The notes below the pieces were generated by a model. That model ran no database searches. It was given only the letters and a program-made list of their open reading frames with translations, and had not been told where the DNA came from. From NCBI GenBank assembly GCA_045545095.1, contig JAZQAG010000049.1, positions 1,213 through 65,212 on the forward strand: a stretch of DNA of 64,000 nucleotides, read 5' to 3'. The position numbers were made by a program, and so were the translations under genes. Each line of letters starts with the position of its first letter. Position 1 is the first letter of the stretch. Shown one piece after another: positions 34,431 through 52,213 of this stretch. This DNA comes from Phocaeicola sp. (lineage in GTDB: Bacteria > Bacteroidota > Bacteroidia > Bacteroidales > Bacteroidaceae).

Positions 34431-35126
34431 ATGGCAAAGAAAGAGAAGATAAAGAGCATGTTTGACAACATTGCCCCCGACTATGACAAGCTGAACCACA
34501 TCATGTCGCTGAACATCGACAAAGGGTGGCGCCGGAAGGCAGTGCGCGAGATGGCAGATACTGACAAGCCGCTCGCAGTGCTCGACGTGGCCTGTGGTAC
34601 GGGTGACTTCACCATCGAGATTGCACGCAAAGTGTCCAAAGGGAGCCGCATCATAGGTATCGACCTGTCAGAAGGGATGATGAAGGTGGGCCGTGAGAAG
34701 ATTGCCACCGCCCAAGTGGATGCCACATTGGAATATGGCGATTGCGAAGCCCTGACGTATGCCGATGGCACTTTTGACCGCATATCCGTAGGTTTCGGCG
34801 TGCGCAATTTCGAGCATCTGAGCATCGGACTGGAGGAGATGTGCCGCGTGTTGAAACCAGGCGGAAAACTGGTAATCTTGGAATTGTCCGTCCCCTCCAA
34901 CCCCATTATCCGTTGGTGCTACAAGCTCTACTTCCTGCACATCCTGCCAGCCATTGGTGGCATGGTGTCAGGCAATCGGGGGGCATACGAGTACCTGCCT
35001 GCATCGGTCCTTCATTTCCCTGCACCCGACAAGTTCATCCCAATGATGCGCGAGGCCGGCTTCAGCGAAGTGAAACACCAACCTCTCACTTTCGGCATTT
35101 GCAGAATGTATGTTGGAATAAAATAA
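34431..35126 (+). CDS. ubiE: demethylmenaquinone methyltransferase (UbiE/MenG)
   Basis: MFDNIAPDYDKLNHIMSLNIDKGWRR...VLDVACGTGD...GFGVRNF is a canonical UbiE/MenG pattern. Confidence 0.9.
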   Translation: MAKKEKIKSMFDNIAPDYDKLNHIMSLNIDKGWRRKAVREMADTDKPLAVLDVACGTGDFTIEIARKVSKGSRIIGIDLSEGMMKVGREKIATAQVDATLEYGDCEALTYADGTFDRISVGFGVRNFEHLSIGLEEMCRVLKPGGKLVILELSVPSNPIIRWCYKLYFLHILPAIGGMVSGNRGAYEYLPASVLHFPAPDKFIPMMREAGFSEVKHQPLTFGICRMYVGIK

Positions 35127-35127
35127 T

Positions 35128-35233
35128 GTGTTAATATGCCAATGTGCTAATGTGCCAATGACCATGCGGCACGATAGCATTAAACATTTACACATTGTCA
35201 CATTAACATATTAGCACATTGGCATATTAACAT
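35128..35233. repeat. octamer-repeat inverted repeat forming a long hairpin in the ubiE-menA spacer
   Basis: The 33-nt arms at 35128-35160 and 35201-35233 are complementary with 4 mismatches. A perfect 23-bp core pairs tgttaatatgccaatgtgctaat (35129-35151) with attagcacattggcatattaaca (35209-35231). The arms are built from CAYATTRR units. Confidence 0.85.
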
Positions 35234-35251
35234 ATAGCACATTAGCATATT

Positions 35252-36127
35252 ATGATCAAAAACTGGATAGAGGCCATGCGCCTTCGTACACTACCCGTCA
35301 GCATGGCGGGCGTGCTTGCCGGATGTGGTTGTGCCCTGTGGCAGGACGGATTCTCCATCGTGCCGGCACTGCTTTGCCTGCTGTTTGCCCTGTCGGCACA
35401 GATTGCCTCCAACTTCGGCAATGAATACTATGATTACAAGAATGGTATGGACCGCAAGGGGCGCGAGGGGTTCCGACGCGGAGTGACTGAGGGAGACATC
35501 ACCCCGCAGGCCATGAAGCGTGCCACCTTTGCCATGTTGGGCATAGCGGCTGTCATCGGCTGTTCGTTGCTGCTGTATGGCGGCCTGTGGCTCATCCCTG
35601 TCGGTTGTGCCATCCTGTTGTTTGCCCTTGCTTACAGCGCTGGTCCCTACTCACTTTCTCATCATGGATTGGGCGATGTCACAGTAGTTGTCTTTTTCGG
35701 CATCGTCCCTGTCACCTTCACCTGCTACCTTCAGACAGGGGGATGGGAGGAATTGTCCGTACTGCTTACCACCTCCGTTGCCATCGGACTCTTGGCAGCC
35801 AATGTCCTCGTTGTGAACAATTATCGCGACATGGAAGATGATGAGGCTGTGGGGAAACGAACGACGGTTGTACTCTTCGGGCGTAAGGTCATGGGCTATG
35901 TTTATCTGCTTTCGGGCATCGCAGCTATGGCCATCATGACAGCCTTGTGGATACAGTTACCCCTATGGGCACTCATCGTTCCCATTATCTATCTGTCACT
36001 ACACATCACTACCTGGCGTAAACTTATCCACAGTCGGGGTGCTGCGCTCAACCCCCTGCTTGGGCGGACGGCTATCAACCTGCTCGTCTTCACAGTCCTG
36101 TTGCTGATGGTGTTGGCGGTAGTGTGA
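35252..36127 (+). CDS. menA: 1,4-dihydroxy-2-naphthoate polyprenyltransferase
   Basis: WIEAMRLRTLPVSMAGVLAG, NEYYDYKNG and NNYRDMEDD are UbiA-superfamily MenA motifs. Confidence 0.9.
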   Translation: MIKNWIEAMRLRTLPVSMAGVLAGCGCALWQDGFSIVPALLCLLFALSAQIASNFGNEYYDYKNGMDRKGREGFRRGVTEGDITPQAMKRATFAMLGIAAVIGCSLLLYGGLWLIPVGCAILLFALAYSAGPYSLSHHGLGDVTVVVFFGIVPVTFTCYLQTGGWEELSVLLTTSVAIGLLAANVLVVNNYRDMEDDEAVGKRTTVVLFGRKVMGYVYLLSGIAAMAIMTALWIQLPLWALIVPIIYLSLHITTWRKLIHSRGAALNPLLGRTAINLLVFTVLLLMVLAVV

Positions 36128-37544: not shown

Positions 37545-38306
37545 TTATTTTCTTACAATCAGGATGCTGACCTCATAGAGCAGCCACATGGGGAGTGCGA
37601 CAAGCATCAGCGTAAAGACATCAGAGGTGGGAGTAATTATGGCTGCAATGATGAGCAGCACTACAATGACGTGGCGACGATAATGACTCATCAACGCGGC
37701 ATTGATGAAGCCCATACGGCCAAGCACCCAACAGATTACAGGTATCTCGAAAACTATCCCCATAGAGAGGCTTACGGTCATCAGAGTCTCCATATATGAA
37801 TCAATGGTGACGGTGTTGGCTACTACGTCACTCACCTGATAGGTTCCCAGGAAACGGAATATCAACGGGAATATCAGGTAATAGCTGAGCAGCACACCAA
37901 GCATGAACATGATGTATCCACTAACCACCAGCCGGATGGCATATTTGCGCTCATGGGTATAGAGTGCAGGGGAAATGAAATGAAAAAGCAGGTATATAAG
38001 ATAAGGAGACGTGAGCAAGATACCGGCACAGACTGAAGCCTTCACATGGAGCAGGAACTGACGCGCCAACCCGATGTTGATAAGTTGCACATCCCATGCG
38101 CCCACGTCTGACAATCCATCAGGAAACAGAGAGGCTGCAATCTGTTCCAACAAACGATAGGTGATGAAGCCGCTATCCTGTGGAGCCAGAATAATATCGA
38201 ACAACTCGTCCTTGAAGAAAAAGGAGATGACAGCGCACACCACCACTGCAACAACCATCTTTATCAGGCTGCCACGCAATTCATCAAGATGTTCCCAAAA
38301 GGTCAT
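37545..38306 (-). CDS. tatC: twin-arginine translocase subunit TatC
   Basis: MTFWEHLDELRGSLIK... and a six-TM pattern; canonical TatC. Confidence 0.9.
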   Translation of the reverse strand: MTFWEHLDELRGSLIKMVVAVVVCAVISFFFKDELFDIILAPQDSGFITYRLLEQIAASLFPDGLSDVGAWDVQLINIGLARQFLLHVKASVCAGILLTSPYLIYLLFHFISPALYTHERKYAIRLVVSGYIMFMLGVLLSYYLIFPLIFRFLGTYQVSDVVANTVTIDSYMETLMTVSLSMGIVFEIPVICWVLGRMGFINAALMSHYRRHVIVVLLIIAAIITPTSDVFTLMLVALPMWLLYEVSILIVRK

Positions 38307-38310
38307 GAGT

Positions 38311-38466
38311 TTATTTCTCTTCCTTTTCTGTCCCGTTCATTCCGTCTTTGAAGCTACGCACTCCTTTACCCAAACCTTTCATCAGTTCAGGTATCTTTTT
38401 ACCTCCAAAGAAAAGAAGAACAATCAGGGCAATAATGATAATTTCTTGAAATCCTATTCCAAACAT
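38311..38466 (-). CDS. tatA: twin-arginine translocase subunit TatA/E (51 aa, below the ORF-track cutoff)
   Basis: My own translation is MFGIGFQEIIIIALIVLLFFGGKKIPELMKGLGKGVRSFKDGMNGTEKEEK. This has a TM segment, an FGG hinge and an amphipathic helix. The stop lies 4 nt before the tatC ATG. Confidence 0.85.
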   Translation of the reverse strand: MFGIGFQEIIIIALIVLLFFGGKKIPELMKGLGKGVRSFKDGMNGTEKEEK

Positions 38467-38534: not shown

Positions 38535-39884
38535 TTACAGGGTATCCTGTTTGAGGCTTTCCACGAAGCGGTCAATGCGATGCAACTGACGTGGTATATT
38601 GATGCGCTGCGGACAGTGTTTACTACACTGGTTGCACCCTATACAGTGGCTGGCCTGACGCAACTTGGGAACACTGCGGTCATAGCCCACAAGGAAAGCA
38701 CGCCTTGCTTCGCGATATTTGGGGTCCTGACTGCTTTCTGGCACATTACCTTCGTTCACACACTTGTTATAATGCAGCAGAATTGCCGGAATATCAATTC
38801 CGTAAGGACAAGGCATACAGTATTTGCAATCGTTGCACGGGATGGTGGGATACTGTTTGATCAACCGACCCGTTTCGAAAAGAAATTCTTTCTCCTCTTC
38901 CGTCAACGGCACAAGGGGCGAGTAGGTGCGTATGTTGTCCTGCAGATGCTCCATATAGGTCATGCCACTGAGCACCGTCAGTATCAGTTCCGGCGTACCG
39001 GCAAAGCGGAAGGCCCACGAGGCGACACTGCTTTCAGGACGTTGCTGTTTCAACCGCTTCACTATGTGGTCGGGCAATTTGGAGAGACGGCCTCCCAACA
39101 GCGGTTCCATGATGATACCGGGAATCTGGTACTTTTCCAATGACTCGTAAAGACCTTTGGCATTGGAGCCATGCCAATCCACGTAGTTAAGCTGTATCTG
39201 CACAAAATCCCAATGATACTGGTCGTGCAGGGCCAACAACTCATCAAACACCTCCTGCGATCCATGGAACGAAAAGCCCAAACGGCGGATGCGTCCGGCC
39301 TTGCGCTCCTCCATCAGGAAGTCCATCATGCCATTATCCACAAACCGTTTGCGGAAATTGTCCATTCCACCACCGCCCAAAGAGTGCAACAGGTAATAGT
39401 CAATATACTCCACCTGCAGTTCTTCAAAAGAACGCCGGTACATGGCCAACGAATTCTCTCGCGAAGAATTGGAGAAGTTGGACAACTTGGTGGCAATGTA
39501 GTACGACTCACGCGGATGTCTTTTAAGGGCGATGCCCGTAGCCTTTTCCGACTTGCCTTGTACATAGACCGGTGCTGTATCGAAATAGTTGACCCCATGT
39601 GCAAGGGCATAGTCCACCAGATCGTTCACCGCATCCTGGTCGATGATATCCCCCTTCCCTTCCGGATTGGGCATTGTAGGCCAACGCATACAGCCGTATC
39701 CCAATATCGAGACATTATCGTCTCCCAATCCCGGAAAACGGCGACAAGTCATCTTGTCTGTCGGGACAGGCCCCAACTCACTGCCGGTCACATCAGTTTC
39801 CGCCTTCCGTTTGCACCCGCACAACGCGGCTGCCCCAGCGGCTGTGCCCAGTCCCATTATCTTTAAGAAATCGCGTCTGTTCAT
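38535..39884 (-). CDS. aldo/keto reductase with C-terminal 4Fe-4S domain, carrying a twin-arginine signal and lipobox
   Basis: MNRRDFLKIMGLGTAAGAAALCGC (Tat motif plus Cys). AKR core (LGYGCMRWP, GVNYFDTAPVY, IATK, HSLGG). The C-terminus has CNDCKYCMPCP and CIGCNQCSKHCP. Start set to the ATG at 39884. Confidence 0.8.
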   Translation of the reverse strand: MNRRDFLKIMGLGTAAGAAALCGCKRKAETDVTGSELGPVPTDKMTCRRFPGLGDDNVSILGYGCMRWPTMPNPEGKGDIIDQDAVNDLVDYALAHGVNYFDTAPVYVQGKSEKATGIALKRHPRESYYIATKLSNFSNSSRENSLAMYRRSFEELQVEYIDYYLLHSLGGGGMDNFRKRFVDNGMMDFLMEERKAGRIRRLGFSFHGSQEVFDELLALHDQYHWDFVQIQLNYVDWHGSNAKGLYESLEKYQIPGIIMEPLLGGRLSKLPDHIVKRLKQQRPESSVASWAFRFAGTPELILTVLSGMTYMEHLQDNIRTYSPLVPLTEEEKEFLFETGRLIKQYPTIPCNDCKYCMPCPYGIDIPAILLHYNKCVNEGNVPESSQDPKYREARRAFLVGYDRSVPKLRQASHCIGCNQCSKHCPQRINIPRQLHRIDRFVESLKQDTL

Positions 39885-39935: not shown

Positions 39936-41444
39936 CTAAATCTCCCGATGTCTCTCGTGTCCCTCCACATATATGGCACTGAAGGGACGGGCCGGACAGA
40001 GATGCTCACAAGCCCCACAACCGATACACCGCTCTGTATTGATGGCCGGTATCTTGGGCGAACGCTTGTCACCCTCCACCGAGGGAATCATCTGTATGGC
40101 TCCCGTGGGACAATGGCGGGCACAGTTGCCACAAGGCTGTCCGTCAGTCAGAGGAATACAGTTCTTCTTCACCCATACGGCATGCCCTATTTGGGTAGAG
40201 GACTTGTCTTCACGGGTGATCGGACGGATGGCACCGGTGGGACACACATCCGAGCATTTGGTACATTCCGGCCTGCAATAGCCACGCTCATACCTCATCT
40301 CGGGCTGCATCAGCCTTGTCAAATCTGTAGAGGGAACAAGCACCCCGTTGGGGCACACCGACACACAAAGCTGGCAGGCAGTACAGTGTTGGGCAAAATG
40401 GCGGGCGCTCCATGCTCCGGGAGGCACCAGATGGGTTTGTCTGTCAGGCACCACCTTGTCCACGATGGTTGCCAGTCCGCCATCCACCTTCATTTCCTGC
40501 GCCTTAATGGCTGCCGTGGCCGTCGCCACGGCAGTTGTCGCCAGGAAGGTGCGTCGGGACGTATCTCCCACGTGCAACGAGTCTTGGGTTGCAGCCCCAT
40601 CCCCTACAGGCTGTTGGTGATTCTTCACGACAGCTCTTCTATAGCTGATGGCCCCGCGTTTGCATTTGTCCAAACAGTCCATGCAAGCCACGCAGCGACT
40701 GTAGTCTATCCGGTGTTCCTTACTATTGATGCAAGCCGCCTTGCAATTGCGGGCACACAGTCCACATCCATTACATTTGTTGGTGTCAATCACAGGCTTC
40801 AGCCACGAAAAGCGTGCGATGAAGCCCAATACCGTACCGACCGGACAAATGGTGTTGCAATATGTACGTCCACCACGCCAAGCCAATATACCTATTATTA
40901 ATAATGTAGCCACAGCGACTCCGAATGTCGTTGCGCTCCTTATCCATACCTCTGTTCCGTAAAAAGCATAACTGTCTGCCCGCTCAGCCAAATAGGCCAA
41001 TCCATTGTTGCCCCACTGCCAAAGCGGAGCCAACAGGCTATGGGCAATACGCCCGTAGGCACTGTAGGGGGCCAGCAATTTGGCCAATATGCCTCCACCT
41101 GCGAGCAACGACACAATAAAAAGAAGCAGCATGATGTAGCGCAACCACCTCTTCTCGGCCGAGTAGGCATACCGGTTCTTCTTGGCCTTCTTTCCCAGCC
41201 AGGCAAAGATATCCTGCATCACGCCCAATGGACAGATGACCGAACAATAGACTCTTCCAAACAATGCAGTCAGCAAGACCAACATGACCACCACTCCTAC
41301 ATTCAGGGCAAGCAGGGCCGGCAAGAACTGGATTTTGGCCATCCAACCGAACCAAGCATGCAACGTTCCCGTAAAATCCAGAAACAGCATCGTTATGGCT
41401 ACATAGAAAATGATGGCAAGGGCTACTCTAATTTTTCGCAACAT
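39936..41444 (-). CDS. membrane polyferredoxin: NapH-like module (TMs, 2x CX3CP, 2x 4Fe-4S) fused to a NapG-like 4x[4Fe-4S] module through an internal twin-arginine segment
   Basis: CSVICPLG and CNTICPVG. CNGCGLCARNC and CVACMDCLDKC. An internal TSRRTFLATTAVATATAAIKAQE segment. Then CTACQLCVSVCP, CRPECTKCSDVCP, CGNCARHCP and CIGCGACEHLCP. Start set to the ATG at 41444 (MLRKIRVALAIIFYV). Confidence 0.72.
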   Translation of the reverse strand: MLRKIRVALAIIFYVAITMLFLDFTGTLHAWFGWMAKIQFLPALLALNVGVVVMLVLLTALFGRVYCSVICPLGVMQDIFAWLGKKAKKNRYAYSAEKRWLRYIMLLLFIVSLLAGGGILAKLLAPYSAYGRIAHSLLAPLWQWGNNGLAYLAERADSYAFYGTEVWIRSATTFGVAVATLLIIGILAWRGGRTYCNTICPVGTVLGFIARFSWLKPVIDTNKCNGCGLCARNCKAACINSKEHRIDYSRCVACMDCLDKCKRGAISYRRAVVKNHQQPVGDGAATQDSLHVGDTSRRTFLATTAVATATAAIKAQEMKVDGGLATIVDKVVPDRQTHLVPPGAWSARHFAQHCTACQLCVSVCPNGVLVPSTDLTRLMQPEMRYERGYCRPECTKCSDVCPTGAIRPITREDKSSTQIGHAVWVKKNCIPLTDGQPCGNCARHCPTGAIQMIPSVEGDKRSPKIPAINTERCIGCGACEHLCPARPFSAIYVEGHERHREI

Positions 41445-41696
41445 GGTATTTGTGTTTATTTTTTCAATACAAGTTTTCCACATGGTGATACCAACAAAGT
41501 GGGTATCATTTCGCAAAAGTATATTCTTTTTCTCAAAAAAACGATTTTTTCAAGATAAATGTACAGCCTTTTGTCCAATTTATTTAATTTTCTCTCCTCC
41601 ACAATACAAATAGGAAAAAATCCAAACTGCATTTTTGACGTTCAAGAAACGGAGAAGGGCTCTTTTGCCAATATTTTCGGATTAAATCCGACAAGC

Positions 41697-41813: not shown

Positions 41814-43754
41814 ATGAGAAAGAAAAGTATTATTTTGTTGGCCGCAGTGCTGCTCGTGGCCGGTGGTCAGGCATCAGCCTTCAAGAAGCAGTTCAAGGAT
41901 GTAGAATGGCTGAACAGCAATGTCGGCAATGCAGAAATCACCCACGTGATGCTGACCGACACGGCCACCATCGTCACCTTCCACAAGCACGACACAAACA
42001 ATGGCATCCGCTTTGACCGGGCCACCTGCCTCGTGGACGACAAAGGCAAGGAGTACCGCATCATGCGCAGCCAAGGAATCCCCGACGAGAAGTTCGACCA
42101 ATTCTTCCCAAAGACAGCCAACGAGGCGAACGACTTCAAACTGCTGTTCGAACCTCTGCCCAAGAAGACTCCTTTCTTTGATCTGATAGAGGGGAGAAAA
42201 TCCGGTGACTTCCGAATCTTAGGCATACACGATGCCAAGAAGCCTATCGGGATTCCTACCTTCGTGGATACAGTGAGTGTGCCACAGGACTTCATCCGCA
42301 CGGACACCGTCTGCCTGTGCGGACAGATTGAGGGATACTCGCGCGACATGGGGTTCAATACCATGCAACTCTATCTGGGGAACGAACTGACAGGCGAGGA
42401 CACGCCCAAAGCCATCGATGTGCAGGAAGACGGGACATTCGAAATCAAGTTTGTCGATTTTTATCCCAAGGAGCTCTATTTCTCTATCCGCACGGAAAAC
42501 CTCTATCAGCCAATCAGTGCCTATCTGGTGCCAGGATGCACCACCGTGATCAACATCCACAAGGACTGGACGATAGACTATAAAGGCTCTGACGAGGAGG
42601 TGCTGCGTTGCGAAAGGCTGATAATGAGTGGAACGGACTACATGAACAGCTATCAGTACAGGGACTATGAAAAAGATAAGGAGGCGCTGTCGTTTGCAGA
42701 GATGCAGGAAAAACTGATGGGACTGGCCAAGACCAACGAAAAGGCTGTGGATTACATAGCCTGGCGCAACGGTTTCAATCCATGGGAGCGGCACTTGGCA
42801 CACGTGTGGAACAAGTTACGCCATGCCCGGTGGATTATGGAGTACATCATGGATGCCCGGTTTGCAACCTACCGAAAAGTGACGGGTGAAGACAGCATCC
42901 GGGCCTATAAGAGGTTGGCCGATGTGACCGATGCGGCCAATTGGGGATTCTTCAGGGAATTGCCCTACAACGATGTCTCTTCACTGACCAGCAATGACAT
43001 AAGCATTATGCTGAACCGCTATGAATTTGCGCCGGTGCTGGACGAAGCCTTCAGGCTCCTCATAGTGAAAGCCGACTATGAAGCAAGCAAAGACAGTACC
43101 ATACTGGCCAACGACATGAAGGTGACAGGAGCAGACAGCCCCTCGCTATGGGGAAAGATTGTCGTACTGAGAAAGACGGAGAACAATCTCAAAAACTTCC
43201 GGAAGGAAAAGGAGGAACAGAAGAGGTTGGTGGAACTCCGCCGCGAGACATTGGAGCATCCCGGCCTGCAGGCCAATCTCGACCGCCTCTACGCCAAGGA
43301 GCTGGAGCGGCAGACACTCATCTACAGCCTGCCCGATACAGAAGCAACCCGTATCCTGCGCCGCATGACGGACAAATACAGGGGGAAATACCTGCTCATT
43401 GACTTCTGGGGAATGGGATGCGGCCCCTGCCGGAGCGCCATCGAACACTCCAAGGAGTTGCGCAAGACCTTCAGACTCCATCCCGAGGTGGATTTCCTCT
43501 TCATCGCGGCACCTGAGTCAACCGAAGAGGCATACAACAACTACGTGAAGGAGAACCTCGATGGGGAGGACTGCCACCTCATCACCCGCGACGAATACAA
43601 CAAACTGATGGAACTCTTCCAGTTCAATGGCATTCCCCACTACGAAACGCTGGACAAGAACGGTAACGTGGTGCGCGAAGGACTGGAGTACTGCCTCTAC
43701 GATACCAACACATTTACCGAGAAACTGAAAGAACTGAAAAATAGATTAGAATAA
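41814..43754 (+). CDS. TlpA/ResA-like thioredoxin-fold thiol:disulfide oxidoreductase, paralog A (large N-terminal extension)
   Basis: Signal peptide MRKKSIILLAAVLLVAGGQASA. The C-terminal thioredoxin domain has LIDFWGMGCGPCRS and FQFNGIPHY. Confidence 0.75.
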   Translation: MRKKSIILLAAVLLVAGGQASAFKKQFKDVEWLNSNVGNAEITHVMLTDTATIVTFHKHDTNNGIRFDRATCLVDDKGKEYRIMRSQGIPDEKFDQFFPKTANEANDFKLLFEPLPKKTPFFDLIEGRKSGDFRILGIHDAKKPIGIPTFVDTVSVPQDFIRTDTVCLCGQIEGYSRDMGFNTMQLYLGNELTGEDTPKAIDVQEDGTFEIKFVDFYPKELYFSIRTENLYQPISAYLVPGCTTVINIHKDWTIDYKGSDEEVLRCERLIMSGTDYMNSYQYRDYEKDKEALSFAEMQEKLMGLAKTNEKAVDYIAWRNGFNPWERHLAHVWNKLRHARWIMEYIMDARFATYRKVTGEDSIRAYKRLADVTDAANWGFFRELPYNDVSSLTSNDISIMLNRYEFAPVLDEAFRLLIVKADYEASKDSTILANDMKVTGADSPSLWGKIVVLRKTENNLKNFRKEKEEQKRLVELRRETLEHPGLQANLDRLYAKELERQTLIYSLPDTEATRILRRMTDKYRGKYLLIDFWGMGCGPCRSAIEHSKELRKTFRLHPEVDFLFIAAPESTEEAYNNYVKENLDGEDCHLITRDEYNKLMELFQFNGIPHYETLDKNGNVVREGLEYCLYDTNTFTEKLKELKNRLE

Positions 43755-43779
43755 TCGGTTGCGGCAAAATGCCATTCAA

Positions 43780-43972
43780 AAAAAGCAGAATTTAAACTTT
43801 ACTTTTGCCGCAAAGATACGCTTATATAATATATAGGTGTCTAAAAATTAGACATTCTGGCATCGGAAACAGACGTTTTTTGACTTTACCCTTGGAGGAG
43901 AGATGGGAAACGACTATTTTTGCCACAAAGAAGAGTACCAGGAAAAGTAAGACAAACAAAGATATAGAAATT
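43780..43972 (+). repeat. 193-bp leader cassette, copy 1 (partner at 52648-52840)
   Basis: Aligns without gaps to 52648-52840, with about ten mismatches by eye. Homology continues about 45 nt into the CDS. Confidence 0.9.
43838..43854. promoter_or_regulatory. palindrome TGTCTAA-AAA-TTAGACA in leader copy 1
   Basis: 7-bp arms, with the same half-site architecture as 41697-41715. Confidence 0.4.
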
Positions 43973-46141
43973 ATGAGAAAGAAAAGCATCCTGATGGCGG
44001 TGCTGGCGATGGCCGCCATTGTATGGGCACAGCCCACCGTTGCACAGAAACGAACCGAAAGTACGGTGATTGAGAATCCACAGTTCAGTGTAAGCAATAC
44101 GGGCACACTCACCATCGACCGGGTGGAACTGTTACCGGACTCTACCCGCCTGCACATGACGGCCTATCACAGTCCGCGCAGTTGGGTGCACATTGCCCGC
44201 GAGACTTACATACGGGTAAAAGGCGAGAAGCTGACAATGACCTCGGCCGAGGGCATCACGCCCGATAAGGAGTTTTACTCGGACGAGACGAACCAGACGC
44301 ACTTCGTGCTGAACTTTCCCGCTGTGGCCGCTGATGCACAGACACTGGACTTCTATGAAAGCGATTGCGAGGATTGCTTCAAGTTTTGGGATGTGGCACT
44401 GACCCCTGAGGCACAACAGATAGCGGTTTCTACTCCGGCAGACATTCAGGCTTGGGCAAATATCCCTGATGACGGCAAACCATTGGTGACACCCACTTGG
44501 AAATCGGGAAAGGCTACGGTGAAGGGCTTCATCCGAGGGTACAAGCCTGAGATGGGAAAGGAAATAATTGTCTATTACGATAATCCTGTGACTGGCATAC
44601 AGGAGATGCACGGGATAGGAATAAAACCTGACGGCACATTCAATGCCAGTATCCCTATTGCCACAACAGATGCCAGTGTTTTCGCCAGAATGCCGAATTC
44701 CACCATTTCTTTCCTCATCGCCGAAGGCCAAGAGGTGGAAATGTACATAGACAGGGTAGCGGAGGTTCACCAGAGAATACCAAACAAGGCTTTGCAAACC
44801 CAGCAGCAACAGACCATTTTCTTCCGTGGAGTACATGCCGACATCAACAACTGTTTGCAGACAGAAGAGGCAAAGTCATTCGACACCCACATCCCGACCA
44901 AGAAGTATCTGAAGGATATTGCAGACATGAGTCTTGAAGAATACAAAAGCTATTACATGGATTTTTACCAGAAACAGTTGGCGGTTATGGAGGAGCTACC
45001 TTTCTCCAGTAAGATGAAGGAATTCCTTGGATTGGAGTTGAAGCAATATATCAGCCATTTTCTGTTCTTCGGAGACATGCACTTGGAGAGTGCTTTCCGC
45101 CAAAAGCACAATTTGGGCAGGAGGGACACACTCAAAGGCTATAACACCCCCGTCTTTACTGAAAAGTACTATTCGTTCCTGAAGGAACTGGACATGAATA
45201 ATCCCAAAAACCTGCTTCATTCGGAATTTTCAAACAATGTGAACAGCTGCAAGTTCATCAACTATAATCTGTACGATTACAACGCACTCATGCACTCCAC
45301 AACAGCCAAAGAGTTTCTGAAGGAGAAGACGCTGAACCGTGAGGAAAAGAAACTGATGAAGAAGATAAGCGGTGTAAAGACCATGCAGGAGTTCCGAGAA
45401 CTTCTAAATAGAGATGAAGCATCGGCATCGACATGGAAGAATATGCAAGAGAGGTTCTATGATCTGATGAAAGGGCAACGTATCCCATTACAGATACAGA
45501 CGGCAGCCAAACTGATGGGTACGAAGAAGAGCATTGTGTTCGACCTGATGGCAGCACAAACCCTATGCGCCCCGTTGGAAGAGAAAATGCCTATCCCCGA
45601 AGAGGACTTCCATAAAGCCGAACAGTTGGAGAATCCTTTCTTTGCCGAATACATGAGAGAAAAGAATGCCGAACTGGCCGCCGAACTTGAAGCGCAGAAG
45701 CAGAAGGGAGGCTACACCATACACCAGGCAGGAGAGAGTCTGGGCGAAGCCCTATTGGTAGATATCGTGCAACAGTTCAAGGGGAAAGTAATCTTCATCG
45801 ATCTATGGGCCACCTGGTGCGGTCCTTGCCGTTCGGCCATGACACGGTTTGAACCGATAAAAGAGAAGTTGCAAGAGTTGAAGGGTAAGGACTTGGCTTT
45901 CGTCTATCTGACCGACGAGAGCTCTCCCGAAAAGGCATGGAAAAACATGATTCCCAACATCAAAGGCGAGCACTACCGCCTCAGCAACTCCCAACTGGGC
46001 AGTCTGAAACTGATGTTCAACTTCACCGGCATCCCCTCGTACCTCATTGTAAGCAAAGAGGGAAAAGTTGTCTATTCACATGTCGGTTTCGAAGGTAACG
46101 AGAAGATTGCACGACTCCTGATAGAAGAGTTGAAGAAATAA
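43973..46141 (+). CDS. TlpA-like thioredoxin-fold oxidoreductase, paralog B
   Basis: Signal peptide MRKKSILMAVLAMAAIVWAQP. C-terminal FIDLWATWCGPCRS and FNFTGIPSY. Start set to the ATG at 43973; the track TTG start at 43805 lies in the leader. Confidence 0.75.
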   Translation: MRKKSILMAVLAMAAIVWAQPTVAQKRTESTVIENPQFSVSNTGTLTIDRVELLPDSTRLHMTAYHSPRSWVHIARETYIRVKGEKLTMTSAEGITPDKEFYSDETNQTHFVLNFPAVAADAQTLDFYESDCEDCFKFWDVALTPEAQQIAVSTPADIQAWANIPDDGKPLVTPTWKSGKATVKGFIRGYKPEMGKEIIVYYDNPVTGIQEMHGIGIKPDGTFNASIPIATTDASVFARMPNSTISFLIAEGQEVEMYIDRVAEVHQRIPNKALQTQQQQTIFFRGVHADINNCLQTEEAKSFDTHIPTKKYLKDIADMSLEEYKSYYMDFYQKQLAVMEELPFSSKMKEFLGLELKQYISHFLFFGDMHLESAFRQKHNLGRRDTLKGYNTPVFTEKYYSFLKELDMNNPKNLLHSEFSNNVNSCKFINYNLYDYNALMHSTTAKEFLKEKTLNREEKKLMKKISGVKTMQEFRELLNRDEASASTWKNMQERFYDLMKGQRIPLQIQTAAKLMGTKKSIVFDLMAAQTLCAPLEEKMPIPEEDFHKAEQLENPFFAEYMREKNAELAAELEAQKQKGGYTIHQAGESLGEALLVDIVQQFKGKVIFIDLWATWCGPCRSAMTRFEPIKEKLQELKGKDLAFVYLTDESSPEKAWKNMIPNIKGEHYRLSNSQLGSLKLMFNFTGIPSYLIVSKEGKVVYSHVGFEGNEKIARLLIEELKK

Positions 46142-46151
46142 ACTAAAAACT

Positions 46152-47360
46152 ATGAAAAGAAAGAAAAGTATGCTGATGGCGGCACTGGTGATGGCCGCCG
46201 CAAGCCTGATGTCATTTGTAAGTGCATCGGAGGAAGAAACAATCGTAATTGAGGGAAAGCTGACCAATGTGCCAGACAGCATAGTATTGAGCCTGACCGA
46301 ATGGGACGGGAATGTGGGAGATTGTGTGGCCACCGATACAGTGATAAATGGTAAGTTCCTGTTCGAGATAAAGACCGATATCAAAGAAGTACATCCAACC
46401 AGCATCAATTGCGATGCTTTCGGATTTTCGACTTCTGATTTCTTATGGATAGAACCGGGTGCCAAGGTGAAGATTACAGGCGATGGTCTGGACTACTCGG
46501 CATGGAAAATCAAAAGCAACGTGGCGGTGCAGAAGACTGAGAACCGTTTCCGCAAAGCTTCGGAAGAGGCATATAGCCAATTGTATCAAATAGAGACCGA
46601 ACTCTATACCATGACGGAAGCCAACGACAAAGGGAAGCGTTCCGACGAAGAAATCCAAAAGGTACGCGCCCGCATGAATGAATTGAACAAGTTACAAAGA
46701 AATGTCCGTTCGGAAATACACAACAAGGAAAATGCCCTGCTCCCCGACATTACCCCCGACGAAGCATGGCTTACCCGACTATATCAACTTTCACGCGCAG
46801 GCAGTTTCACCAATGACACGCTGAAACTTGCCCAAGCCAAAGAGCAATACGCACGTATGGACGAGCGGCTGAAGGCCACTTTCCACGGACAAGGCATCAC
46901 GACTTACCTCTTCCCCTTCAAAGTGGTGAAGGTGGGCGATATGATTCCCAATCTTGAATTGAAAGACACATCAGGTAATACCCACCGTCTGCAGGAACTG
47001 AAGGGGAAATATATCCTGCTCGACTTTTGGAGCAGCGGTTGTGCCCCTTGCATCGCAAGTTTTCCTGAACTGAAGACCCTCTCAGAACAGATGAAGGAGA
47101 AGATAGCGGTGGTAAGCGTCAGCGAAGATGGCGAAGAGATGTGGCGCAAAACCTCTGCCAAACACAGCATCACATGGAACAATTGGAACGACCTGAAGCA
47201 CAACAACGGCATCTTTGCCCACTTCGGAATACGCACCATCCCGCACTACTTCCTTATTTCGCCTGAAGGAAAGATTATTGCGACAGATATAGGTTACAGC
47301 AAAGGCAGCCTCTTCAAGTTTGTGAAAAAGACTATTGCAGAACATAACAAACAAGAATAA
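46152..47360 (+). CDS. TlpA-like oxidoreductase, paralog C (DUF4369-like N-domain + helical linker + thioredoxin)
   Basis: IVIEGKLTNVPDS..., LLDFWSSGCAPC, FGIRTIPHY. 10 nt after paralog B. Confidence 0.75.
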   Translation: MKRKKSMLMAALVMAAASLMSFVSASEEETIVIEGKLTNVPDSIVLSLTEWDGNVGDCVATDTVINGKFLFEIKTDIKEVHPTSINCDAFGFSTSDFLWIEPGAKVKITGDGLDYSAWKIKSNVAVQKTENRFRKASEEAYSQLYQIETELYTMTEANDKGKRSDEEIQKVRARMNELNKLQRNVRSEIHNKENALLPDITPDEAWLTRLYQLSRAGSFTNDTLKLAQAKEQYARMDERLKATFHGQGITTYLFPFKVVKVGDMIPNLELKDTSGNTHRLQELKGKYILLDFWSSGCAPCIASFPELKTLSEQMKEKIAVVSVSEDGEEMWRKTSAKHSITWNNWNDLKHNNGIFAHFGIRTIPHYFLISPEGKIIATDIGYSKGSLFKFVKKTIAEHNKQE

Positions 47361-47362
47361 CC

Positions 47363-48556
47363 ATGATGAAAAGAAAGAAAAGCATTCTGATGGCGGTGCT
47401 GATGATGACCATCGCAAGCATGATACCCTGCAAGGCACAAGAGGCAAACGTATCCATTAAAGGGAAACTGACCAATGTGCCTGACAGCCTGTATCTCTAC
47501 ATCGTAGAGTTCGATAATCAAAGAGGAAGTACTACGGCACGTGGGGTCATGGCAAAGGGAGAACTTTCATTTGAATTCAAAACGAGAATAAACACTCCCC
47601 ATTTAGCGACTATCCGTAATCACGAAATAGGATTCAAGCCATTGCACCTCATGTGGATAGAGCCTGGTGCACAGGTAAGAATTACGGGCGATGGATTGGA
47701 TTATTCCACATGGAAAATCGAAAGTAATGTCAAAGCACAACAAAATGAAAACCGATTTCGGGAAGCAACCCAAAAGGAAGAAAGCAAACGGCACCAATTG
47801 AATATGGAAATCTGTCGTTTAGAGGAACTATATGGGAAAGCACAAGACCAACGGGAAATAAAGCAGAAATTGATAGAACTCAGCAAACAATCGGATAGTA
47901 TCTTCTATACAACCAAGGAGCGAGTATTGCCTTTGCTTGAAGAGCTTCCTGTAGATGAAGCATGGATGTTACGTCTGTTTGATAACAGTCAGACAAAAGA
48001 AATGAGTCCCCATCGCCGCAAGAATCTTATCGCATTAAGCCAACGCATGAATGAAGAACAAAAAAGTTCCTATTTTGGTAGAGCCATAATAACAAATCTC
48101 AATCCACCTCAATCTGTGACTATTGGACAGGAAATTCCAAATATTGTTTTGAAAGATACGTTAGGCAATCCCCACCGTCTACAGGAGTTACAAGGAAAAT
48201 ACCTGCTATTGGATTTCTGGAGTAGTGCTTGTGCCCCTTGCATCAAAAGTTTGCCCGAACTGAAGGAGATAGCCGAGGCTTTCAAAGATAATCTGACTAT
48301 AGTCAGTATTAGTAGCGACCCTGAAACAGCATGGAAACGAGCTTCTCGGAAATACTCCCTTACAGGCCACAACTGGAACGACCTACAGGGAAGCAACGGT
48401 ATCTTTGCCCAATTTGGAATAGAAGGAACCCCTACATATCTCCTACTTTCCCCAGACGGGAAATTGATAGGTAAAGAAACGGGATATAAATATGGATTCC
48501 TCTTCAAGTTCGTGAAAGAGACTATTGCGGGACTTAAAAAAGTGAGAAAAGAATAA
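47363..48556 (+). CDS. TlpA-like oxidoreductase, paralog D
   Basis: SIKGKLTNVPDS..., LLDFWSSACAPC, FGIEGTPTY. 2 nt after paralog C. Lipobox-like MIPC. Confidence 0.75.
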   Translation: MMKRKKSILMAVLMMTIASMIPCKAQEANVSIKGKLTNVPDSLYLYIVEFDNQRGSTTARGVMAKGELSFEFKTRINTPHLATIRNHEIGFKPLHLMWIEPGAQVRITGDGLDYSTWKIESNVKAQQNENRFREATQKEESKRHQLNMEICRLEELYGKAQDQREIKQKLIELSKQSDSIFYTTKERVLPLLEELPVDEAWMLRLFDNSQTKEMSPHRRKNLIALSQRMNEEQKSSYFGRAIITNLNPPQSVTIGQEIPNIVLKDTLGNPHRLQELQGKYLLLDFWSSACAPCIKSLPELKEIAEAFKDNLTIVSISSDPETAWKRASRKYSLTGHNWNDLQGSNGIFAQFGIEGTPTYLLLSPDGKLIGKETGYKYGFLFKFVKETIAGLKKVRKE

Positions 48557-49827: not shown

Positions 49828-50889
49828 ATGATGATGAAAAGAAAGAAAAGTATGCAGATGGTAGCACTGATGATGGCCGTCGTGAGCATGACACCCTGCA
49901 AGGCACAAGAGGAGAACATCAGCAAACAGCCAACGTCGTACATCGTTGAAGGGACATTAGCCGGATCGGCTGCAGATGACATGGAAATAGTCCTCTATGA
50001 TACAGAAAAAAGGCAAAATCTGAACAAGTCGGTCGTTACAGATGGCAAGTTCTATTTTACAGGGGTGGCCGACAGTGCCATTGAATGTCAGGTAATCGTT
50101 CCCAAATACCAAGCTGAAGGTTACTCTGGAATCTTCATTCTGGAAAACGGACACATCCGCATGAATCTAAAAGAATCGGCCCATGCCCCACAAGGAACAT
50201 TGCTCAATGATGAGTTCCGCAGAATCTTTGCATTGGAGGACAGCCTGAAACAGGCCAATGCTTCCGAGGAGGTTTACAAGACCTATTCATACCAAGTATT
50301 CCAAGGTCATGAAGATGATGCTATCGGATATGCTCTATTGAGAAGCCGTTTCTTCACGCATGCAGGAACAGATAGCGAAAAACGGGTTTTACTGGAGAGT
50401 CTGGGACCTAATTTGAAGCGTACTGGACACTACAATTTCCGCCTGAGCACTTGTGCTCCCAACCCACTCATCGGTCAGCATCACAAAGAAATAAAAGGAA
50501 CAGATGCCAACGGAGAAACCCTTGCTTTGTCAGCATTCATAGGCAAAGGGAATTATGTACTTATTGACATGTGGGCCAGTTGGTGTGCTCCCTGCAAAGG
50601 AGAGGTGCCTTATCTGAAGTACCTACATAATCAGTACAAAGACCGAGGATTGACCATTGTCGGCATATTCACATGGGACAAGCCTGAAAATATGGCCAAA
50701 GCCATTGAAGAGGAAGGAATGACGTGGCCACAAATCATAGACACGGAGAAGATTGCCATGGAACAATACCAAGTAACAGGCATTCCTACCCTGGTACTTC
50801 TCTCTCCTGAAGGCAGAATCCTTGAAATGGATCTTAAATTCCGTGGCGAAAACATGGTGAAGACAGTCGAAAAGTATCTGACCAAATAG
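49828..50889 (+). CDS. TlpA/AhpC-TSA-like oxidoreductase, paralog E
   Basis: Signal/lipobox MMMKRKKSMQMVALMMAVVSMTPC. LIDMWASWCAPCKGE and YQVTGIPTLV. Starts 13 nt after the ATPase stop. Confidence 0.75.
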   Translation: MMMKRKKSMQMVALMMAVVSMTPCKAQEENISKQPTSYIVEGTLAGSAADDMEIVLYDTEKRQNLNKSVVTDGKFYFTGVADSAIECQVIVPKYQAEGYSGIFILENGHIRMNLKESAHAPQGTLLNDEFRRIFALEDSLKQANASEEVYKTYSYQVFQGHEDDAIGYALLRSRFFTHAGTDSEKRVLLESLGPNLKRTGHYNFRLSTCAPNPLIGQHHKEIKGTDANGETLALSAFIGKGNYVLIDMWASWCAPCKGEVPYLKYLHNQYKDRGLTIVGIFTWDKPENMAKAIEEEGMTWPQIIDTEKIAMEQYQVTGIPTLVLLSPEGRILEMDLKFRGENMVKTVEKYLTK

Positions 50890-50936: not shown

Positions 50937-51884
50937 TCATCGTAGCATTGCAAGTTTATCTGCTATAATCACCCGATATTGTTCCTGCATATCATCAGGA
51001 AGGAAAGAACTGTTGATAAACTCAAACCATTTGTCTTGGGCTTTCAGAAATTTGTTGAATACGTTATCCACCACCTTCTTATCTAAGCCCGAAGCCTGCA
51101 TGGCAACCTCGAAATCGGACTTCTTTATTTTCCGTTTTCTCCCATTCAAGGTCAAAGCCAATTCTTCGGTATCTTCAGGCATTACTAAAGCCGTGGATAA
51201 CATATCGTAGGCTGGTGAGAGTGTGTAAATCCCCGATTGTCTGCTATAAAGAGAAAAGTTTTTCAGGTGCATATCTGCGTTTCCCGTTATCCATGAGAAA
51301 ACCACCAATTCCCAATAATTGACCAAATCCAATTTGGGAGCAGAGGAATGCTTCTGTATAACCTTCGCTATTTGTTCATAAGAGCCTTTATATTTATGTT
51401 CGGTCAACCGTTCTGCCAATTGGCACATATCTTCCATAGGAAGTTTCTCCCCTTTGGAAGTACGGTCTACACGACGTGTGATATAGCACAGCTCACCATC
51501 AGCAAAGCGCACCAAACAATGAGGGACCGTTCGGATTTTGGCCAACTCGGCCAAATGCATCGTCAAGTCTTCAACCTCAGGCAAATAGGGGAATCGTTCT
51601 GTTTGTGGTTTCAGAATATATCGCCCCCATAACCCTACGATGGTAAAACGGTCTGTTTCGTTTTTACTTCCTTTATTTATGTCTAACGACAACTTGGCCT
51701 GTACTCCTGTGAGCGTTGTCTGACTCCGTATCACTTGTCGGGCAAGATCTGTCAGGTTTTCACGTGTATAAGGCAATTCGGGTACAACCGGTGTTCCGAA
51801 CATTTTCTTTGAACAGGCTTTATGAAAATCTTTTTCTCCTGTCGCAAGTTCTTTGTAACAATAAAGACATTTTTCCATAGTCAT
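50937..51884 (-). CDS. HipA-family Ser/Thr kinase toxin lacking the N-terminal subdomain (HipT-like), with an N-terminal CxxC...HxxC motif
   Basis: LTGVQAKLSL Gly-rich loop, GNADMHLKNFS catalytic loop, AYDMLST. N-terminus CLYCYKEL...FHKACSKK. The ATG overlaps the upstream stop (TGATG). Confidence 0.8.
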   Translation of the reverse strand: MTMEKCLYCYKELATGEKDFHKACSKKMFGTPVVPELPYTRENLTDLARQVIRSQTTLTGVQAKLSLDINKGSKNETDRFTIVGLWGRYILKPQTERFPYLPEVEDLTMHLAELAKIRTVPHCLVRFADGELCYITRRVDRTSKGEKLPMEDMCQLAERLTEHKYKGSYEQIAKVIQKHSSAPKLDLVNYWELVVFSWITGNADMHLKNFSLYSRQSGIYTLSPAYDMLSTALVMPEDTEELALTLNGRKRKIKKSDFEVAMQASGLDKKVVDNVFNKFLKAQDKWFEFINSSFLPDDMQEQYRVIIADKLAMLR

Positions 51885-52213
51885 CACTCCATTTCATCTG
51901 TTATGGGTTCAACACCTACTGCACCAATACAGTCTTTGCAACAAGCCATGAGCAAGGACATGCGGTCGCGAGCATCAATTTTCCAATTCTTTTCTGCGAT
52001 ATCAAGCAGCCATCCTTCCGGAATAAGTCCGTCAAAAAAGGGGAAAAGAATTTTGTCCCTATACGGATCTTCTGTCAAAGGAAGGGTAAGGCTTATGGCC
52101 TCAGCTTCATCTGAAGCGAGAAAACCTGCATCATATTGGAAGGTGTATCCGTTTTCATCTTCCGTAAGAACACCTGCCCTGATGCCACGCAATAATATTG
52201 TAGCCTGCTTCAT
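51884..52213 (-). CDS. HipA N-terminal-subdomain protein (HipS-like)
   Basis: 109 aa. GIRAGVLTEDENGYTFQYD...LPLTEDPY...LFPFFDGLIPEGW is the HipA N-terminal coupling-domain pattern. The start overlaps the upstream stop (TAATG). Confidence 0.75.
   Translation of the reverse strand: MKQATILLRGIRAGVLTEDENGYTFQYDAGFLASDEAEAISLTLPLTEDPYRDKILFPFFDGLIPEGWLLDIAEKNWKIDARDRMSLLMACCKDCIGAVGVEPITDEME

Follow-up and report, generated by a model that had tools for sequence, protein, structure and literature searches.

The 64,000 nucleotides of Phocaeicola sp. DNA analysed here (the window; contig JAZQAG010000049.1, positions 1,213 to 65,212) encode a polytopic iron-sulfur protein with a twin-arginine signal in the middle of the chain, and the question is what such a signal does there. 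An earlier note on this DNA had left two readings side by side: an internal Tat-dependent signal anchor, by which the C-terminal four-cluster domain is exported after Sec insertion of the upstream helices, or internal initiation at a GTG codon, so that a NapG-like Tat substrate of its own is translated in the same frame. Our analysis leads to a modified form of the first reading. We consider it rather likely that the product is a dual Sec/Tat-targeted NapH-NapG protein whose internal Tat signal is cut after export.

The open reading frame with the twin-arginine segment spans 39936-41516 on the minus strand and includes an upstream TTG. The coordinates 40497-40571 of the earlier note cover V292-Q316; the peptide quoted with them extends one codon further at each end. 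The in-frame GTG reported at 40569-40571 is present and codes for V292. A location about 320 residues into the protein holds only on counting from TTG 41516; from ATG 41444 the arginines are residues 297 and 298. The ATG is the likelier start, because its context is typical of the gene starts of this genome (score 7.3 versus 5.9 for the TTG) and the closest homologues have 493-519 aa. On these sequence grounds, translation likely begins at ATG 41444 and yields 502 aa (Table 1).

Table 1. Features of the fusion gene and the genes downstream of it, with window coordinates
Feature	Coordinates	Strand	Basis or remark
NapH-NapG fusion polyferredoxin (PFD family)	39936..41444	-	502 aa from ATG 41444
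NapH-like part, aa 1-272	40629..41444	-	hydropathy, Cys motifs, charge counts; model pLDDT >88 per block
Hypervariable cytoplasmic linker, aa 273-296, contains the GTG codon	40557..40628	-	unconserved; low pLDDT
In-frame GTG (V292), unlikely start	40569..40571	-	start-context score
Twin arginines R297-R298 of S-R-R-T-F-L	40551..40556	-	conservation; Pfam TAT_signal E 9e-4, under its cut-off
h-region F300-I313, short, weakly hydrophobic, Thr/Ala-rich	40506..40547	-	hydropathy; model helix 296-315
Predicted signal peptidase I site I-K-A315/Q316 (Q-rule)	40497..40508	-	AQ conservation, shuffles, genome controls
NapG-like four-cluster domain, Q316-I502, 16 Cys	39936..40499	-	profile match, Cys count; predicted periplasmic mature subunit
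Aldo/keto reductase with C-terminal Fe-S motifs, N-terminal Tat signal and lipobox	38535..39884	-	Pfam; start 39884 or 39899
tatA	38311..38466	-	only copy found in genome
tatC	37545..38306	-	only copy found in genome

Hydropathy peaks located four transmembrane helices in the NapH-like part (residues 7-25, 44-62, 103-121 and 171-189). Two CX3CP motifs and two ferredoxin (4Fe-4S) motifs precede the twin arginines, with the 4Fe-4S motifs on the inner side, and the 16 cysteines after them fit four clusters; on either side the iron-sulfur motifs are invariant in the alignment of homologues. Among the NCBIfam profiles, the N-terminal half matched NapH and the C-terminal half NapG/MauM, both under the family cut-offs; the C-terminal half also matched NapF. 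An MLMS-1-type polyferredoxin (PFD) of the Desulfobacterota (L161) aligned over 452 columns with 29 % identity (E 3e-53), arginine pair on arginine pair; its motifs, compared by eye, are those of the MLMS-1 sequence in the supplement of PMC5449189. By its sequence the fusion belongs to the dual Sec/Tat polyferredoxin family: it shares with PFD Q1NSB0 of the delta proteobacterium MLMS-1 (PMC5449189) full-length homology, four Sec helices before a conserved arginine pair, a weakly hydrophobic fifth segment and iron-sulfur motifs on two sides. Tooke et al. 2017 (PMC5449189) termed PFD a NapH-NapG fusion and did not list Bacteroidetes for the family. Reporters fused after the fifth segment of the MLMS-1 protein were exported in E. 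coli in dependence on Tat and the arginine pair, export being lost with RR to KK, whereas membrane insertion was independent of Tat. The fifth segment (TMD5) was treated there as retained, and an artificial AxA was added for the reporter. Dual Sec/Tat targeting of PFD is thus already published biology.

The same targeting is indicated for the Phocaeicola protein by the conservation of the signal. RRxF is shared by all 121 close homologues, in which the preceding 25 residues vary freely, and R298 was the sole linker column conserved to at least 90 % in a 102-sequence alignment down to 34 % identity. Of the 242 homologues left after dereplication at 70 % identity, 235 had a twin basic pair followed by a hydrophobic run (RR 170, KR 57, RK 8). 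Invariance in a hypervariable linker and persistence in the wide set place the motif beyond chance; the alignment of orthologs proposed in the earlier note as a check came out in favour of a conserved pair. Genome-wide, a canonical RRxFL with a hydrophobic h-region was found in two proteins only, the fusion and, at its N-terminus, the product of the next gene.

Lysine and arginine were counted nine times in the 40 residues of the inner loop between TM2 and TM3, and once in 18 and four times in 49 residues of the outer loops. According to the positive-inside rule, the N-terminus is inside and the arginine pair consequently cytoplasmic. For a prediction of the complex, residues 1-272 and 318-502 were folded as separate chains, together with three controls. 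The score of 0.63 versus 0.00 for the best control (partner pLDDT at least 76) has to be read with the caveat that halves of one gene tend to pass and that both chains shared one alignment; the mark applied separates solved complexes, of which 58 of 80 pass, from mismatched pairs, of which 2 of 110 pass. Repeat runs agreed in at least 97 % of contacts. All named contacts fell on residues 20-46, 116-139 and 169-176, that is, on outer helix ends and the loops TM1-2 and TM3-4. The hits in the PDB, by sequence and by fold, were small ferredoxin domains only; a solved NapGH-like structure, which the model might have learnt, was not among them, though its absence is not thereby proven. The model supports binding of the C-terminal domain to the outer loops of the NapH-like part, opposite the inner clusters, so that the linker would have to cross the membrane. 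Topology prediction, a check named in the earlier note, thus places the domain outside rather than in the cytoplasm. Altogether, Sec insertion of the four helices and Tat export of the folded four-cluster domain are very probable. Homology, the kept arginine pair and topology uphold the export part of the first reading; the term signal anchor probably does not fit, for the c-region resembles a working cleavage site.

In Bacteroidetes, cleavage by signal peptidase I usually exposes a glutamine that is converted to pyroglutamate; the papers on this Q-rule deal with Sec substrates and leave Tat unmentioned (PMC5837995). A-Q ends the internal segment in all 121 close homologues (codons 40497-40502 in the fusion), and close relatives usually read K-A-Q-E-K-K. 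A hand-made pattern, not SignalP, was used for counting (x-x-[AGS]-Q, 16-24 residues after the arginine pair). Of the 89 dereplicated Bacteroidota homologues, 43 carry it; in 500 shuffles the count averaged 6.2 and never exceeded 14. The counts are not independent, since homologues share ancestry. Non-Bacteroidota members of the same clade had it in 3 of 17 cases (shuffles 1.8) and MLMS-1-type proteins in 0 of 14. Within the 43 sites, position -1 was alanine in 36 and position -3 was L, A, I or V in 36. Applied to this genome, the pattern was found after 51 % of N-terminal signal-like h-regions and after 5.7 % of internal hydrophobic stretches; the internal segment hence carries the glutamine at the rate of real signal peptides. 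The position of the glutamine follows the arginine pair (sd 2.3 residues) rather than the folded domain (sd 6.0 residues), and in a tree of 81 sequences built without the linker the glutamine label changed 46 times. A lipobox cysteine replaces the glutamine in seven homologues, which fall into two separate clades (shuffles about 1; eight were called and P0169 was dropped as false). This swap is explained most easily if the internal signal is processed. The lipobox variants comprise loci L106, L123 and L077 and proteins P0210, P0232, P0255 and P0258, one of them from Candidatus Kapabacteria.

The genome encodes signal peptidase I as well as an orthologue of glutaminyl cyclase. A glutamine follows the predicted peptidase site, yet the signal is internal and of the Tat type instead of N-terminal and of the Sec type; judged by its residues, it behaves like a Q-rule substrate outside the described members. 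A generic AxA without the glutamine was, for most groups, at best slightly commoner than in shuffles, and its frequency in MLMS-1-type proteins (5 of 14 versus 2.5 in shuffles) neither supports nor excludes cleavage there. In E. coli, an AxA engineered after an internal Tat helix improved the function of an AmiA fusion (PMC3471235), so the geometry appears to allow internal cleavage. Given export, a cut by signal peptidase I between A315 and Q316 is predicted with fair confidence. The fusion would then probably be a polyprotein maturing into a NapH-like and a NapG-like subunit. For the wider claim, that dual Sec/Tat PFD of Bacteroidota and several other lineages are natural polyproteins, mostly cut by signal peptidase I with formation of pyroglutamate and in at least two lineages lipidated at a cysteine in mid-chain and cut by signal peptidase II to a lipoprotein, we see an even chance.

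The main competitor of cleavage is an ordinary PFD in which Sec and Tat act as described, the fifth segment stays as an uncleaved anchor, and AQ is left over from the signal peptide of an ancestral NapG or has a structural role. This would agree with the published model (Tooke et al., PMC5449189) and with the MLMS-1-type proteins that lack the glutamine site. About half of the Bacteroidota homologues also lack it by pattern, a share similar to that among ordinary signals of this genome. Furthermore, the residues after the glutamine are likewise invariant in close relatives, so AQ could persist for a reason other than cleavage. The c-region also pairs two lysines, K314 and K319, with two acidic residues, E317 and D321, for a net charge of 0 over residues 313-330, at the place where the PFD family has positive charges. 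A relic, however, would decay in a variable linker, yet the site is kept to 36-40 % identity, and the exchange for a lipobox is sensible mainly if the signal is processed. Residues 316-324 have no defined structure in the model. As a permanent anchor the h-region would be poor: it has 14 residues and is less hydrophobic than its MLMS-1-type counterparts, with no hydropathy peak and a best 12-residue Kyte-Doolittle mean of 1.42 versus a median of 2.17. In comparison with the MLMS-1 PFD, the fifth segment is shorter, less hydrophobic and ends in a Q-rule signature, and the spacer from the arginine pair to the domain start is longer and variable (median 42-43 residues versus 33 in the MLMS-1 type). 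We regard a retained anchor as possible but unlikely and keep cleavage after export as the preferred reading.

The fusion gene heads a block on the same strand, followed by the aldo/keto reductase, tatA and tatC. Reductase homologues (n = 120) carried RRxF in 118 and a lipobox in 117 cases, and the reductase is the likely redox partner of the fusion. In 20 of 24 genus members the fusion gene occurs together with tatC, as a rule no more than 4 kb apart; the other four lack both, a co-absence confounded by linkage and incomplete genomes. At 110 further PFD loci the neighbour was DUF362 or a related reductase in 102, and 60 of 74 such neighbours had a Tat motif at the N-terminus. DUF362 itself, a Tat-signal protein of the LarA clan, adjoins PFD in 97 of these loci (L064-L173); in Bacteroidaceae a Tat reductase seems to replace the DUF362 protein of most other taxa. 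Menaquinone genes are present in the genome. A molybdopterin oxidoreductase (NapA) was looked for and not found in the genome, which is 91 % complete, so the partner of the fusion is probably not a nitrate reductase. A Bacteroidales genome with a canonical run of napA, napG and napH as separate genes was encountered (L063:98-5276). As to a nickel-pincer cofactor in the reductase, the match to NphT (9YEB) was weak (E 9e-8) and ranked below several ordinary aldo/keto reductases, and LarC was not found in the genome. Promoter and terminator scans gave results at about chance level. At 34431-36127 on the plus strand, a ubiE/menG-like methyltransferase gene and menA converge on the Tat block, 1.4 kb from tatC.

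The arginine segment might also be a dead remnant, with the C-terminal domain staying in the cytoplasm as a NapF-like protein. The NapF match of the C-terminal half would suit this, as would KR instead of RR in about a quarter of homologues; the motif, however, is strongly conserved and linked to tatAC, the neighbouring partners bear N-terminal Tat signals, the predicted complex places the domain opposite the inner clusters, and export was demonstrated for a homologue. Such a remnant is most improbable.

Least credible of all is initiation at the GTG, five codons before the arginines and in frame: its context, scored with a matrix built from 1164 genes of this genome, falls in the 1st percentile of gene starts and the 41st percentile of internal codons, and at 135 homologous loci start codons within 12 codons before the pair are rarer than background (30 % versus 46 %; ATG alone 5 % versus 18 %), on which grounds the codon was rejected as a start. 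That a stand-alone form is viable follows from L060, the one clean natural case obtained when genomes splitting the gene exactly at the segment were sought, as the earlier note had suggested. There, an ATG three codons before the arginine pair overlaps the upstream stop. This locus (L060:3149-7692) encodes a NapH-like protein of 299 aa and a NapG-like protein of 223 aa; DUF362 lies upstream of them, and larC/larE-like genes follow downstream. Four other apparent splits in close relatives were discarded, three as frameshift or nonsense lesions and one for want of an upstream half. A search for shorter homologues gave mostly fragments, and the called starts in the lesion cases were scattered. 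Loci L178-L180, from three separate samples, share an identical frameshift near 2480-2516, apparently in an A run, where the NapH-like half ends; a real lesion and a slippage site are both possible. In P0217 and P0425, an unrelated N-terminus is joined to the C-terminal domain just before K-A-Q, possibly by an assembly artefact.

In the maturation with cleavage that we propose, Sec would insert TM1-4 with the N-terminus inside, as hydropathy, charge and the result for the family in E. coli suggest. The weakly hydrophobic fifth segment would evade Sec, and the C-terminal domain would load its four 4Fe-4S clusters in the cytoplasm, as in the family mechanism. The TatAC encoded nearby may then read S-R-R-T-F-L and export the folded domain, a step demonstrated for the MLMS-1 homologue. 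Signal peptidase I would cut between A315 and Q316 and glutaminyl cyclase cap the new N-terminus as pyroglutamate, and the freed NapG-like subunit is predicted to stay bound to the periplasmic loops of its NapH-like counterpart. Judging by NapGH and by gene order, the two would most likely shuttle electrons, in one direction or the other, between menaquinone and the Tat-exported reductase.

The quinol dehydrogenase NapG/NapH (MauM/MauN) has the same two modules, but encoded by two genes: NapG, with four clusters, is exported by Tat, and NapH is a four-helix Sec protein (PMC5449189). Actinobacterial Rieske proteins, Sco3746 and polytopic YkuE are dual Sec/Tat proteins that likewise have an internal arginine pair after Sec-inserted helices, but differ in their cofactors; in the literature examined, the Tat helix of dual-targeted proteins is described as kept. 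One gene gives rise to two respiratory subunits in the cytochrome b-c1 precursor FbcH of Bradyrhizobium japonicum, which is cut at an internal signal. Unlike the fusion, FbcH contains heme proteins and a Sec-type internal signal without twin arginines. A literature search of incomplete coverage gave no report of a cleaved internal Tat signal in PFD or of lipobox variants, and a search on Bacteroides Tat substrates, also incomplete, gave nothing relevant. The predicted cut in the internal Tat signal thus seems to be new, and so do the lipobox variants, both being read from sequence. If cleavage holds, signal peptidases act in the middle of a protein after a handover from Sec to Tat, the Q-rule extends to Tat cargo, and NapGH has a third state between fused and split, namely one in which the gene is fused and the protein split. 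From the lipobox variants one would expect lipoproteins that escape N-terminal predictors. The block of fusion and Tat genes may carry most of the Tat traffic of this genome and would then indicate a so far uncharacterised branch of periplasmic electron transfer in gut anaerobes.

Beyond the block, the window holds on its plus strand five genes (41814-48556 and 49828-50889) for exported proteins with C-terminal thioredoxin/redoxin (CxxC) domains, and the signal peptides of two of them end in K-A-Q-E, as does the internal site. On the minus strand at 50937-52213 follow an N-terminal and a C-terminal gene of what we take, from the sequence, to be a split HipA-like kinase.
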